From the NCBI GenBank assembly GCA_964016885.1, contig OZ024756.1:26908001-26972000 (forward strand): a stretch of 64,000 nt of DNA. Direction: 5' to 3'. This document shows, one piece after another, positions 6,475 to 60,969 of the stretch. Each line of letters opens with the position of its first letter. Within the stretch, counting starts at the first letter, position 1. Source of the DNA: Eledone cirrhosa (taxonomy: Eukaryota). Below the pieces are notes generated by a model that saw nothing but the letters and a program-made list of their open reading frames with translations, was not told where the DNA came from and did not search any database. The position numbers and the translations under genes are program-made.

Positions 6475-7771
6475 ACAAAACAAAACAAAACAAAACAAAA
6501 CAAAAAACAAAACAAAAAAAACAAAAAAACACCAAAAAAACAAAAAAAACAACAAAATAAAAACAAAACAAAACAAAAAAAAAACAAAACAAAAAAAAAC
6601 AAACAAAAAAACAAAAAAAAAACAACAAAACAAAAAACAAAACAAAACAAAAAACAAAAAACAAAAAACAAAACAAAACACAAAAACCAAGCACCAAGCA
6701 CCAAACACCAAACACCAAGCACCAAGCACCAAGCACTAAGCACCAAGCACCAAACACCAAACACCAAGCACCAAGCACCAAACACCAAACACCAAGCACC
6801 AAACACCAAACACCAAGCACCAAGCACCAAACACCAAACACCAAGCACCAAGCACCAAACACCAAACACCAAGCACCAAGCACCAAGCACCAAACATCAA
6901 GCACCAAGCACCAAGCACCAAACACTAAGCACCAAGCACCAAGCACCAAACACCAAGCACCAAACACCAAGCACCAAGCACCAAGCACCAAACACCAAGC
7001 ACCAAGCACCAAACACCAAACACCAAGCACCAAGCACCAAACACCAAACACCAAGCACCAAACACCAAACACCAAGCACCAAACACCAAACACCAAGCAC
7101 CAAACACCAAGCACCAAGCACCAAACACCAAGCACCAAGCACCAAACACCAAACACCAAACACCAAGCACCAAGCACCAAACACCAAACACCAAACACCA
7201 AACACCAAGCACCAAGCACCAAGCACCAAACACCAAGCACCAAACACCAAACACCAAACACCAAACACCAAGCACCAAACAGCAAACACCAAGCACCAAG
7301 CACCAAACACCAAACACCAAGCACCAAGCACCAAGCACCAAGCACCAAACACCAAACACCAAGCACCAAACACCAAGCACCAAGCACCAAACACCAAACA
7401 CCAAGCACCAAGCACCAAGCACCAAACACCAAACACCAAGCACCAAGCACCAAACCACAAACACCAAGCACCAAACACCAAACACCAAGCACCAAACACC
7501 AAACACCAAATACCAAACACCAAACAGCAAACAGCAAACACCAAACACTAAACACCAAACACCAAACACCAAACAGTAAACACCAAACAGCAAACACCAA
7601 ACACGAAACAGCAAACACCAAACAGCAAACACCAAACACCAAACACCAAACAGCAAACACCAAACAGCAAACACCAAACACCAAACAGCAAGCACCAAGC
7701 ACCAAACACCAAGCACCAGCACCAAACACCAAGCACCAAGTACCAAGCACCAAGCACCAAGCACCAAACAC

Positions 7772-7772
<1 letters not shown>
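6475..7772. repeat. (CAAAA)n tract followed by a 7-bp satellite (AGCACCA/AACACCA)n
   Basis: Seen directly. The 7-bp array spans ~6686-7772. Confidence 0.97.
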
Positions 7773-8354
<582 letters not shown>

Positions 8355-22754: not shown

Positions 22755-22784
22755 TACACACACGTATATATATATTTAACTCTA

Positions 22785-25700
22785 ACCCAACATCAACTAC
22801 ACCACCAACCACAATACCAATTATAACATCAACCACAACTCCATTCATAACACCAACAACACCAACAACAACACCAACCACAACACCAACAACCACAACA
22901 CCAACCACAACACCAACAACAACACCAATCACAACACCAACAACCACAACACCAACCACAACACCAACAACAACACCAACAGCAACAACAACCACAACAC
23001 CAACCACAAACCAACCACAACACCAACAACAACAACAACCACAACACCAACCACAACACCAACCACAAACCAACCACAACACCAACCACAACACCAACCA
23101 CAACACCAACAACAACAACAACCACAACACCAACCACAAACCAACCACAACACCAACCACAACACCAACAACAACAACAACCACAACACCAACAACAACA
23201 ACAACCACAACACCAACCGCAACACCAACCACAAACCAACCACAACACCAACAACAACAACAACCACAACACCAACCGCAACACCAACCACAACACCAAC
23301 CACAACACCAACCACAACACCAACAACAACAACAACCACAACACCAACCACAACACCAACAACAACAACAACCACAACACCAACCACAACACCAACCACA
23401 ACACCAACAACAACAACAACCACAACACCAACAACAACAACCACAACACCAACCACAACACCAATCACAACACCAACCACAACACCAACCACAACACCAA
23501 CCACAACACCAACCACAACACCAACCACAACACCAACCACAACACCAACCACAACACCAACCACAACACCAACCACAACACCAACAACAACAACAACCAC
23601 AACACCAACAACAACAACAACCACAACACCAACAACAACAACAACCACAACACCAACAACAACAACAACCACAACACCAACCACAACACCAACCACAACA
23701 CCAACAACAACAACAACCACAACACCAACAACAACACCAACAACAACACCAACCACAACACCAACCACAACACCAACCACAACACCAACAACAACAACCA
23801 CAACACCAACCACAACACCAACCACAACACCAACCACAACACCAACAACAACAACAACCACAACACCAACCACAACACCAACCACAACACCAACCACAAC
23901 ACCAACAACAACAACAACCACAACACCAATCACAACACCAACAACAACAACAACCACAACACCAATTACAACACCAACCACAACACCAACCACAACACCA
24001 ACAACAACAACAACAACAACCACAACACCAACCACAACACCAACCACAACACCAACAACAACAACAACAACAACCACAACACCAACAACAACAACAACCA
24101 CAACACCAACAACAACAACAACCACAACACCAACAACAACAACAACCACAACACCAACCACAACACCAACCACAACACCAACAACAACAACAACCACAAC
24201 ACCAACAACAACACCAACAACAACACCAACCACAACACCAACCACAACACCAACCACAACACCAACAACAACAACCACAACACCAACCACAACACCAACC
24301 ACAACACCAACCACAACACCAACAACAACAACAACCACAACACCAACCACAACACCAACCACAACACCAACCACAACACCAACAACAACAACAACCACAA
24401 CCACAACACCAACCACAACACCAACAACAACAACAACACCAACCACAACACCAATCACAACACCAACAACAACACCAACAACAACACCAACCACAACACC
24501 AACAACAACAACCACAACACCAACCACAACACCAACCACAACACCAACAACAACAACAACCACAACACCAACCACAACACCAACCACAACACCAACCACA
24601 ACACCAACCACAACACCAACCACAACACCAACAACAACAACCACAACACCAACCACAACACCAACCACAACACCAACCACAACACCAACAACAACAACAA
24701 CCACAACACCAACCACAACACCAACCACAACACCAACCACAACACCAACAACAACAACCACAACACCAACCACAACACCAACCACAACACCAACCACAAC
24801 ACCAACAACAACAACAACAACAACAACACCCACAACACCAACCACAACACCAACAACAACAACAACACCAACCACAACACCAATCACAACACCAACAACA
24901 ACACCAACAACAACACCAACCACAACACCAACAACAACAACCACAACACCAACCACAACACCAACCACAACACCAACCACAACACCAACAACAACAACAA
25001 CCACAACACCAACCACAACACCAACCACAACACCAACCACAACACCAACCACAACACCAACCACAACACCAACAACAACAACCACAACACCAACCACAAC
25101 ACCAACCACAACACCAACCACAACACCAACCACAACACCAACCACAACACCAACCACAACACCAACAACAACAACAACCACAACACCAATCACAACACCA
25201 ACAACAACAACAACCACAACACCAATTACAACACCAACCACAACACCAACCACAACACCAATTACAACACCAACCACAACACCAACCACAACACCAACCA
25301 CAACACCAACCACAACACCAACAACAACAACAACCACAACACCAACAACAACAACAACCACAACACCAACCACAAACCAACCACAACACCAACCACAACA
25401 CCAACAACAACAACAACCACAACACCAACAACAACAACAACCACAACACCAACAACAACAACAACCACAACACCAGCAGCAACACCAACAACAACAACAA
25501 CCACAACACCAACCACAACACCAACCACAACACCAACCACAACACCAACAACAACAACAACCACAACACCAACAACAACAACAACCACAACACCAACAAC
25601 AACAACAACCACAACACCAGCAGCAACACCAACAACAACAACAACCACAACACCAACCACAACACCAACCACAACACCAACCACAACACCAACCACAACA

Positions 25701-28700
25701 CCAACAACAACAACAACCACAACACCAACAACAACAACAACCACAACACCAGCAGCAACACCAACCACAACACCAACAACAACAACAACCACAACACCAA
25801 CAACAACACCAACAACAACACCAACCACAACACCAACCACAACACCAACCACAACACCAACAACAACAACCACAACACCAACCACAACAACAACCACAAC
25901 ACCAACAACAACAACAACCACAACACCAACCACAACACCAACCGCAACACCAACCACAACACCAACCACAACACCAACCACAACACCAACCACAACACCA
26001 ACCACAACACCAACAACAACAACAACCACAACACCAACCACAACACCAACCACAACACCAACCACAACACCAACCACAACACCAACCACAACACCAACAA
26101 CAACAACAACCACAACACCAACCACAACACCAACCACAACACCAACCACAACACCAACCACAACACCAACCACAACACCAACAACAACAACAACCACAAC
26201 ACCAACCACAACACCAACCACAACACCAACAACAACAACAACCACAACACCAACAACAACAACAACCACAACACCAACCACAACACCAACCGCAACACCA
26301 ACCACAACACCAACCACAACACCAACCACAACACCAACCACAACACCAACCACAACACCAACCACAACACCAACCACAACACCAACCACAACACCAACCA
26401 CAACACCAACAACAACAACAACCACAACACCAACCACAACACCAACCACAACACCAACCACAACACCAACAACAACAACAACCACAACACCAACCACAAC
26501 ACCAACCACAACACCAACCACAACACCAACCACAACACCAACCACAACACCAACAACAACAACAACCACAACACCAACCACAACACCAACCACAACACCA
26601 ACCACAACACCAACCACAACACCAACCACAACACCAACAACAACAACAACCACAACACCAACAACAACAACAACCACAACACCAACCACAACACCAACCG
26701 CAACACCAACCACAACACCAACCACAACACCAACCACAACACCAACCACAACACCAACCACAACACCAACCACAACACCAACCACAACACCAACCACAAC
26801 ACCAACCACAACACCAACAACAACAACAACCACAACACCAACCACAACACCAACCACAACACCAACCACAACACCAACAACAACAACAACCACAACACCA
26901 ACCACAACACCAACCACAACACCAACCACAACACCAACCACAACACCAACCACAACACCAACAACAACAACAACCACAACACCAACAACAACAACAACCA
27001 CAACACCAACCACAACACCAACCGCAACACCAACCACAACACCAACCACAACACCAACCACAACACCAACCACAACACCAACCACAACACCAACCACAAC
27101 ACCAACCACAACACCAACCACAACACCAACCACAACACCAACAACAACAACAACCACAACACCAACCACAACACCAACCACAACACCAACCACAACACCA
27201 ACAACAACAACAACCACAACACCAACCACAACACCAACCACAACACCAACCACAACACCAACCACAACACCAACCACAACACCAACAACAACAACAACCA
27301 CAACACCAACCACAACACCAACCACAACACCAACCACAACACCAACCACAACACCAACCACAACACCAACAACAACAACAACCACAACACCAACCACAAC
27401 ACCAACCACAACACCAACCACAACACCAACAACAACAACAACCACAACACCAACCACAACACCAACAACAACAACAACCACAACACCAACCACAACACCA
27501 ACCACAACACCAACCACAACACCAACCACAACACCAACCACAACACCAACCACAACACCAACAACAACAACAACCACAACACCAACCACAACACCAACCA
27601 CAACACCAACCACAACACCAACCACAACACCAACAACAACAACAACCACAACACCAACCACAACACCAACCACAACACCAACAACAACACCAACCACAAC
27701 ACCAACCACAACACCAGCAGCAACACCAACCACAACACCAACCACAACACCAACCACAACACCAACAACAACAACAACCACAACACCAACCACAACACCA
27801 ACCACAACACCAACCACAACACCAACAACAACAACAACCACAACACCAACCACAACACCAACAACAACAACAACCACAACACCAACCACAACACCAACCA
27901 CAACACCAACCACAACACCAACCACAACACCAACCACAACACCAACCACAACACCAACCACAACAACAACCACAACACCAACAACAACAACAACCACAAC
28001 ACCAACCACAACACCAACCGCAACACCAACCACAACACCAACCACAACACCAACCACAACACCAACCACAACACCAACCACAACACCAACCACAACACCA
28101 ACAACAACAACAACCACAACACCAACCACAACACCAACCACAACACCAACCACAACACCAACCACAACACCAACCACAACACCAACCACAACACCAACCA
28201 CAACACCAACCACAACACCAACCACAACACCAACCACAACACCAACCACAACACCAACCACAACACCAACCACAACACCAACCACAACACCAACAACAAC
28301 AACAACCACAACACCAACCACAACACCAACCACAACACCAACCACAACACCAACCACAACACCAACCACAACACCAACAACAACAACAACCACAACACCA
28401 ACCACAACACCAACCACAACACCAACCACAACACCAACAACAACAACAACCACAACACCAACCACAACACCAACAACAACAACAACCACAACACCAACCA
28501 CAACACCAACCACAACACCAACCACAACACCAACCACAACACCAACCACAACACCAACCACAACACCAACAACAACAACAACCACAACACCAACCACAAC
28601 ACCAACCACAACACCAACCACAACACCAACAACAACAACAACCACAACACCAACCACAACACCAACAACAACAACAACCACAACACCAACCACAACACCA

Positions 28701-58534: not shown

Positions 58535-58710
58535 AGAGGGTCGGACGCCATCCTTTGACGCAAAGAGTTACGGCCCTTTACGATCTGAGTTCAAATCCCA
58601 CCGAGGTTAACTTTGCCTTTCATCATTACGGGGTCAATAAAATATAGTAAAGTACCAGTAATACACTGGGATAATTGCTGGCCTTGTGCCAAAAGTAGAA
58701 ACAATTATTA
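58535..58710 (+). mobile_element. SINE family A, 5'-truncated
   Basis: Matches the family A consensus. Confidence 0.9.
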
Positions 58711-58757: not shown

Positions 58758-58869
<112 letters not shown>

Positions 58870-59040
58870 CGAAGGAAATGTGGTAAGGAACCCGATGGAC
58901 CATAACTCACCAAAGTACTCAATACTTAGGGTAGTAGAGTGGGTAATGGGAACGAGTAGGACCCCGACGGCTGAGCTCAAGCTCAGTCCAGAATTAGCCG
59001 TCGAAACGGCTTGAGCTCAGCCGTCGGGGTCCTACTCGTT

Positions 59041-59076
<36 letters not shown>

Positions 59077-59302
59077 ATATACGTTCCTTCACGCACAAGG
59101 CGCCAAGGTACGCATGTATTGTCCAACCAAATGCCAGTGTGGTTCAATGGCGGGTTAATAAATTAACGAGCCAGAACAAATATAAACAAGGTTTAGCAAA
59201 TAATGAAAAAGTTTCAAAATAAATTTTAAAAAATTGACTTTACCTACTATAGTTACCTTTACCGATCGGTTTCAGGAATTTTATATTCTTTGAATGAAAA
59301 GA

Positions 59303-59386
59303 ACCTTCTGACGAGAATCTTTCTTTGCAACGAAGGCCGTATGGTCTCCGTTTTATTTTTGGGATTCGAAACCGATCGGTAAAGGT
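59303..59386 (+). ncRNA. Type I hammerhead ribozyme, copy 1
   Basis: ACCTT-CTGACGA-GAATCTT..GGGATTC-GAAA-CCGATCGG-TA-AAGGT. Confidence 0.93.
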
Positions 59387-59779
59387 AACTATAGTAGGTA
59401 AAGTCAATTTTTTAAAATTTATTTTGAAACTTTTTCATTATTTGCTAAACCTTGTTTATATTTGTTCTGGCTCGTTAATTTATTAACCCGCCATTGAACC
59501 ACACTGGCATTTGGTTGGACAATACATGCGTACCTTGGCGCCTTGTGCGTGAAGGAACGTATATCCTATTACTACTACCTCCACTAATGTTGAGAACAAA
59601 TTTGGTCGTTCTGACTGCTGCTAGCAATAGCTAGTTTGACCTACCTCCTTTTGCCTCTATCTTTGCTTCGGCCCTTGATAAACCTGTTTCTACATCATCC
59701 ACTCTCATCCCAGGAACAGTTTTGATAGCGCTAGTCTGTGATTTAAATTCAGGAATTTTATATTCTTTGAATGAAAAGA

Positions 59780-59863
59780 ACCTTCTGACGAGAATCTTTC
59801 TTTGCAACGAAGGCCGTATGGTCTCCGTTTTATTTTTGGGATTCGAAACCGATCGGTAAAGGT
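59780..59863 (+). ncRNA. Type I hammerhead ribozyme, copy 2
   Basis: Identical to copy 1, 477 nt downstream. Confidence 0.93.
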
Positions 59864-59933
59864 AACTATAGTAGGTAAAGTCAATTTTTTAAAATTTATT
59901 TTGAAACTTTTTCATTATTTGCTAAACCTTGTT

Positions 59934-60021
<88 letters not shown>

Positions 60022-60797: not shown

Positions 60798-60800
<3 letters not shown>

Positions 60801-60965
60801 TTTTTTGAAATTTATTTTGAAACTTTTTCTTATTTGCTAAACCTTGATTATATATGTTCTGGCTCGTTAATTTATTAACCTGTCATTGAACCACATTGGC
60901 ATATGGTTGGACAATACATGTGTCCCTGGACGCTTTTTGCGTGTAGGGATATATACTTTATTATT
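60798..60965 (+). mobile_element. Diverged fragment of the 477-nt family
   Basis: Aligns with 59408-59572. Confidence 0.88.
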
Positions 60966-60969
60966 ATAT

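Follow-up and report, generated by a model that had tools for sequence, protein, structure and literature searches.

The element under study occupies positions 59072-59938 of the window, by which we mean the whole 64,000-nt stretch of the Eledone cirrhosa genome that was analyzed, and is bordered by a (TA)n run on either side (Table 1). Two repeats define its layout: a direct repeat of 191 nt (59271-59461 and 59748-59938, lying 477 nt apart) and an inverted repeat of 202 nt (59072-59273 against 59368-59569), both with 100% identity. The right element end at 59938 is ambiguous, as it lies inside the TA run. The longest frame fully within the element comprises 85 aa and gave no match in a Pfam search. 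Since the antisense 85-aa frame found no Pfam match and, judged by eye, is not kept in an older relative, its protein-like look was dismissed. The 64-kb window comprises no protein match to Penelope-like elements (PLEs) either. Folded as a circle, the predicted 477-nt monomer reaches z -2.3 against 60 shuffles.

Throughout, unit position 1 corresponds to window position 59271, while family positions refer to a natural copy of 483 nt (L006) whose numbering is the same up to position 359. S denotes the short end (unit 191) and L the long end (unit 299-307). The stretch between them is termed 'tail' here, and we infer from the end positions and from the work of Frangieh 2024 (PMC11167929) that its borders are two reverse-transcription start sites.

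Table 1. Features of the hammerhead element and its immediate surroundings (window positions).
Feature	Positions	Strand	Description
Inverted 5'-truncated arm	59072..59273	-	Unit 98-299; 3' end 59072 is the L end, running into (TA)n
Head-to-head arm junction	59271..59273	.	3-nt microhomology (arm overlap)
Main arm	59271..59938	+	1.4 units (477 + 191 nt); 3' end 59938 is the S end, running into (TA)n
Type I hammerhead motif 1	59303..59386	+	5-bp stem I, core 59308, long stem II, GAAA 59368, palindromic stem III; predicted cut after 59381
Type I hammerhead motif 2	59780..59863	+	Identical to motif 1, core 59785, predicted cut after 59858
Predicted cut-to-cut monomer	59382..59858	+	477 nt, non-coding
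'Tail'	59462..59577	+	108-116 nt, S end (unit 191) to L end (unit 299-307)
6-nt deletion point of the window copy	59629..59630	+	Against most family members, 483 to 477 nt
(TA)n target, left	59043..59074	.	Common to a neighbouring insertion of another family
(TA)n target, right	59934..59956	.	Read from the sequence
Separate older 5'-truncated fragment, same clan	60799..60966	+	87%, unit 136-304, ends at the L site

Much of this anatomy had been described by the original prediction. The two identical hammerheads 477 nt apart and the positions of their predicted cuts were confirmed by our motif scan, the reverse-complement piece of ~200 bp proved to be a perfect 202 bp, and (TA)n on both sides, the lack of a meaningful ORF and the assignment to a retrozyme-type element hold as well. 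What the first reading overlooked is that the layout is the footprint of a PLE insertion.

Several other repeats are found in the window. A second two-armed element (58869-59042) uses the same left (TA)n run and belongs to a family of 1,901 candidates, with a tail of about 81 nt and short plus long ends in 17 of 18 two-armed loci, as judged by eye. Neither a hammerhead nor an ORF was seen in 25 loci of this family, which is possibly Naiad-like or another PLE passenger. At 7772-8354 lies a diverged two-armed copy of a 467-nt sister family with a hammerhead remnant on the minus strand (8021-8075). In addition, there are a 10.3-kb array of 862 copies of a 12-nt unit (22784-33088), a related 7-nt unit repeated over 1.1 kb (6676-7773) and copies of an abundant SINE-like repeat (58203-58345, 58535-58700 and 52178-52705), which is inverted around 58236-58624 and also occurs in a 201-nt tandem.

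Hammerhead motif and family

Our hammerhead call rests on a motif scan, folding and covariation. Scanning both strands of the 64-kb window revealed two hammerhead cores, at 59308 and 59785; an Rfam search of the window gave 0 hits at the gathering score, and none of its 65 hits at E<=10 belonged to a hammerhead family. Stem II of the motif is long (53 nt), while stem III is a weak palindrome. In folds of the isolated motif, the probability of stems I and II is 0.67-0.98. Stem III alone is weak (p 0.03), yet its 10-nt palindrome pairs with itself at -16.6 kcal/mol, and a weak palindromic helix III has been described for the dimer-type animal hammerhead (Cervera 2014).

Among 74 distinct motifs, pairs 1-5 of stem I are kept in 67-73 and pairs 1-7 of stem II in 66-73, counts that are inflated by the relatedness of the copies. 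A few distant ones belong to a sister family, and the core letters were demanded by the search pattern. Stem II pairs in 94% of cases, against 70% and 58% in slid controls. Compensatory swaps occur between subfamilies, for example T-A/C-G and G-C/A-T in stems I/II, and the stems are conserved with such changes down to ~70% identity. In the 3.0-Gb genome, the general core pattern matched 2,709 times and an exact 30-mer around the cut 1,185 times, counted as units and not as insertions, while the reversed-pattern controls matched 0 times in either case. Thus the motif matches are not due to chance.

A genome search with the unit gave 2,043 first-look candidates, and among the 40 that were scored most measure 480-484 nt at 96-98% identity. 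The unit length of the family is 480-485 nt, and the 477 nt of the window copy reflect its 6-nt deletion. Among the matches listed, subfamilies range from 100% to about 73% identity, while the unit stays non-coding and of similar size. The 467-nt sister family comprises 2,364 candidates. Reads or contigs of all 4 of the 4 DNA runs checked, including a second organism code, contain the family. With one intact-core type I hammerhead per unit, head-to-tail units at many loci and no coding capacity, its features match those of an animal non-LTR retrozyme. The window element thus represents a single insertion of this kind, from an abundant family of non-coding hammerhead repeats within which its locus is an ordinary one.

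Arm ends, junctions and template

We parsed 77 insertions (20 overlapping loci and 4 later duplicates were dropped), a sample that leans to long copies and to copies with an L site. Their arms end at two fixed places: 61 of 119 arm ends lie at unit 191 and 48 at 299, 301, 304 or 307 (109 of 119 in total), which corresponds to 80 and 188-196 nt past the cut. The four L variants are successive TA-like points. The head-to-head layout with an inverted 5'-truncated copy is present in 42 of the 77 insertions, and 39 of these 42 combine one S with one L end, while one is S+S, none is L+L and 2 could not be parsed. The other 35 insertions are apparently one-armed (25 S, 10 L); however, two of them, L134 and L151, have a second arm past a gap, and both are S+L. 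In a second sample of 20 loci chosen by hammerhead position, 13 are two-armed; 8 of these are clearly and 1 is probably S+L, 1 is S+S, and in the other 3 an end is lost or odd. The arms of the 467-nt sister family end 87 and 192 nt past its cut, with S+L in 6 of 7.

The 5' junctions of the arms, in contrast to their ends, are scattered, and the arms mostly overlap by 0-4 nt. Consequently, the join of the inverted piece at GAAA, to which the original prediction had drawn attention, is present in the window copy but incidental, one of many scattered junctions. Positions 92-112 take 16 of 117 arm stops where 6.4 are expected (P 0.0004, for an interval picked after seeing the data). These stops lie at the stem III palindrome and are not sharp at the cut, as only 2 of 117 lie at position 111. 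The two arms of one locus (L133, G000:C3:305852400-305858400) each stop within the stem III palindrome and overlap by 10 nt, as if two cDNA ends had annealed via this palindrome. The 5' ends also seemed to accumulate at unit position 1, but this was rejected as an artifact of the linear reference and of sampling.

The overlapping pieces of an insertion carry the same variants. Of 108 segregating variants, 87 are common to all overlapping pieces of their insertion, while 10.4 are expected under random draw, and 37 of 50 are shared across opposite arms. Among variants private to an insertion, 9 occur in all of its overlapping pieces, 4 of these across both arms; another 127 are present in a single piece and are read, from the sequence, as probable post-insertion change. 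Since units and both arms share variants, they go back to one template lineage. The cut site is crossed by 95 of 117 arms, and twice or more by 40. The most extreme case (L207, G000:C1:149205027-149210846) has a 4.9-kb arm with 10 hammerheads and no substitution between its units; it also has an opposite arm and comprises 1 substitution in all. Later local amplification or assembly smoothing could add to this uniformity, and gene conversion could likewise homogenize units. No ligation-site scar is visible at the cut base genome-wide (9 changes, compared with 4 at a control A and with 1,185 unchanged copies). Consequently, 3 changes at the cut base in a smaller sample were rejected as such a scar, as the genome-wide count disagrees.

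Proposed insertion by Penelope-like elements and its alternatives

The family shows the features of PLEs: pseudo-LTRs in partial tandem, 5' truncation and a one-sided tail. The PLE footprint has been described as a partial tandem, an inverted truncated copy and a tail of 30-40 bp at one end (Craig 2021, PMC8557442; Arkhipova 2013, PMC3846280). EN+ PLE coding elements with the same (TA)n target exist in the same genome. Among 10,597 GIY-YIG candidates, the frames that were read encode an RT followed by a C-terminal GIY-YIG domain, with an upstream cysteine motif that is given for Neptune and Nematis by Craig 2021. In three of the RT+GIY-YIG-coding families, the ends likewise run into (TA)n and fall at two fixed sites; their tails measure 61, 48 and 40 nt. 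Both arms are present at 6 coding PLE loci, of which 5 are S+L and the remaining one is unreadable. Experiments with a purified PLE protein showed that it cuts both target strands, extends both of them, and begins at two sites inside the RNA that delimit the tail; these experiments found no strand difference in start site, and hammerhead cleavage was dispensable in vitro (Frangieh 2024).

A profile of the clan did not match the terminal repeats of coding PLEs in 50 GIY-YIG loci (of the 10,597 candidates) and 50 further ones. Nor was a coding element joined to the unit found among GIY-YIG loci (50 of 150 scored), with short-stem-II hammerhead patterns or in the search of the sister family. One PLE (L061, G000:C1:145869300-145876500) has direct terminal repeats with 99% identity, an RT+GIY-YIG frame of 938 aa and a variant hammerhead whose core has U in place of the usual C3 and A in place of the usual G8. 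Its family resembles the unit in stem I (4 of 5 pairs alike), in the palindromic stem III and in the distance from cut to S (82 against 80 nt). However, the sequence likeness is not significant (z 0.6-1.2), so that it was rejected as the helper on likeness of geometry; as a young coding family it is worth testing as a helper candidate.

We propose that the insertion was likely copied into (TA)n by a PLE RT/GIY-YIG protein acting in trans, with one arm per strand and site and with a circular monomer as the likely template. In this reading, double priming driven by a PLE is the part we hold with high confidence, and for the template we lean toward the circle over an uncut multimer. A tandem locus would be transcribed and its RNA cleaved at successive hammerheads, probably as a dimer via the palindromic stem III. 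The cut monomer would then be closed into a circle by a host ligase, a step that has been suggested for animal retrozymes elsewhere (Cervera & de la Pena 2020, PMC7229834). A PLE protein, supplied by a TA-targeting PLE of the same genome as the helper, would capture this RNA in trans and nick both (TA)n strands, so that priming would start one cDNA at S and the other at L. Each cDNA would lap the unit RNA over a variable distance, and the cDNA 3' ends would join via 0-4 nt of microhomology, while a single surviving arm would give a one-armed insertion. Against this scheme stand, besides the lack of a matching helper in the loci compared, of a ligation scar and of any strand difference or need for hammerhead cleavage in the experiments of Frangieh 2024, the tail of 108-116 nt, where 30-40 are described for PLEs, the hammerhead fold of the monomer, which costs 7-8 kcal/mol at equilibrium in full-unit context, and the finding that 1 of 9 frog retrozyme dimers was cleaved in vitro (Li 2026, 10.64898/2026.07.22.740005). 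One might go further and speculate, tentatively and at less than even confidence, that double priming is obligately asymmetric: a protein dimer would sit on a circle made by the ribozyme, with one start site per nicked strand, both RTs would lap it, and the cDNA ends would meet head to head. The family, whose start sites would lie 108 nt apart and whose arms reach 10 laps, would then be a record of the rolling-circle reverse transcription of an animal retrozyme, and five other PLE-type families of the genome would follow the same rule.

The window copy itself was put forward by the original prediction as a source, from which read-through would excise a 477-nt monomer. We consider this unlikely. 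Its two motifs are intact and identical, and without the inverted arm hammerhead 1 lies within about 2 kcal/mol of the best fold. However, the arm would be transcribed first and would pair with hammerhead 1. In models of a transcript from the left flank, a 202-bp hairpin (mean p 0.997) pairs the arm with the GAAA, the stem III and the cut site of hammerhead 1. Folding of this hammerhead then costs 21-30 instead of about 2 kcal/mol, and its stem I disappears (probability 0.0), even in co-transcriptional snapshots. Thus read-through would be predicted not to release a monomer, and the hairpin could feed dsRNA silencing instead. The transcript that had been proposed for an in vitro test (59271-59936) omits the inverted arm, and the element ends at 59938 instead. 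In full-unit context the cost of hammerhead 2 stays at 7-8 kcal/mol whether the arm is present or absent, and in its absence the two hammerheads together cost 12.9, which indicates that equilibrium folding understates kinetic or dimeric folds. A recent insertion was claimed as well, and the copy is indeed fairly young with 0 differences at 398 overlapping positions. Nevertheless, it is not uniquely so: 7 of 45 insertions have 0 (median about 0.7%, range 0-2.6%), and other loci look younger. The marker 6-nt deletion recurs in no other full unit compared, so that no daughter is known. Most likely, the window copy is a product rather than a source, and it could act as a source only if transcription began within the main arm. 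At three loci of subfamilies that are 92-94% like the reference (L207, L208 and L210), a single arm holds 3-10 hammerheads in tandem, and no more than 1-2 substitutions occur along 1.7-5.8 kb. Judged by sequence, these loci appear more likely to have been active recently than the window copy, which had been named the best candidate for an active element.

The alternatives for the family as a whole concern template, enzyme and assembly. The same PLE double priming could have used an uncut linear multimer from tandem master loci, with neither hammerhead nor circle needed; we regard this as a serious though rather unlikely reading. It fits hammerhead mutants that left insertion by the purified PLE unchanged (Frangieh 2024), long tandem loci such as L207 and L208 as possible masters, the lack of a genome-wide ligation scar and of a sharp run-off at the cut. 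On the other hand, the 9 insertion-private variants repeated in all overlapping pieces, including the 4 across both arms, are what one lapped unit would leave, multi-unit insertions occur in each of many subfamilies, and the hammerhead stems are kept by compensatory changes. We see little chance that a different enzyme (LINE/RTE-type) or DNA-level amplification moved the retrozyme, with fold-back repair in (TA)n forming the inverted arms. Homology to a coding PLE was not found in the 100 loci compared, and the junction excess at the stem III palindrome, noted post hoc, would suit a fold-back. But fold-back would not yield two fixed, different ends that are each used once, the coding PLEs of the genome follow the same end rule, and a poly(A) tail is lacking. 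Moreover, LINE twin-priming inversions have arms without sequence overlap, whereas the arms here overlap. That the assembler made the tandem and inverted layout is hardly credible. The repeats are perfectly identical and, among the joints listed, no read spans this junction, the reads being from other samples; yet the same layout recurs at dozens of loci with differing junctions and with post-insertion differences between arms, and the family is present in every run checked. Copying by a PLE protein in trans, likely from a circle, remains our preferred reading.

Comparison with known systems

Like other animal non-LTR retrozymes, the family consists of non-coding head-to-tail units of a few hundred nt with low GC, each with one type I hammerhead and without LTR features (Cervera & de la Pena 2020; Li 2026). 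Both sources carry the proposal that such retrozymes are non-autonomous PLE derivatives. The units differ in size, with 480-485 nt here against RNAs of 170-400 nt in the former and 51-972 bp in the latter. Furthermore, the inverted arm, the two fixed ends and the TA target are mapped here, while the word 'inverted' has 0 occurrences in the text of Cervera & de la Pena 2020 and no description of an inverted arm was found in the main text of Li 2026. For the retrozymes of coral, mussel and axolotl, expression and circles have been demonstrated.

With EN+ PLEs of the Neptune type and Poseidon the family shares the partial tandem, the inverted 5'-truncated arm, the tail at one end, a hammerhead with palindromic stem III, microhomology at the 5' junction and an AT-rich or microsatellite target (Craig 2021; Arkhipova 2013; Frangieh 2024). 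It differs by having no ORF and by its longer tail (108-116 against 30-40 nt). In these papers the use of ends is described as 'optional' or 'often at one end', while here it was counted, with one of each in 39 of 42. The PLEs of Chlamys such as MRC1 are likewise non-coding, with pseudo-LTRs and multicopy head-to-tail insertions. However, non-autonomous elements of Chlamys generally resemble an autonomous family at the 3' end and their clade is reported to be without canonical hammerheads (Craig 2021), whereas our family has a hammerhead, and a matching autonomous 3' end was not found in 100 loci. As in plant LTR retrozymes, two hammerheads bound an excisable monomer. The plant elements, however, have type III hammerheads, true LTRs, PBS/PPT and a 4-bp TSD (Li 2026), while the hammerhead here is of type I, and the direct repeat arises as a side effect of the partial tandem and varies in length with truncation.

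Judged by title and start of abstract, no paper found in our searches of the literature outside subscription journals and Repbase/Dfam counts one-of-each ends or maps the inverted arms of a retrozyme. So far, the mobilization of animal retrozymes by PLEs has been argued from shared hammerheads, co-occurrence and trees of terminal repeats. Here, the insertions themselves bear the full PLE footprint, and since their ends are widely spaced, the one-of-each rule is easily counted. The RNA is short and non-coding, its natural products number in the thousands, and it leads to exact predictions for PLE proteins in vitro, namely on start sites, on the assignment of strands and on circle against multimer. 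The two fixed arm ends would make this family a good test of element insertion.
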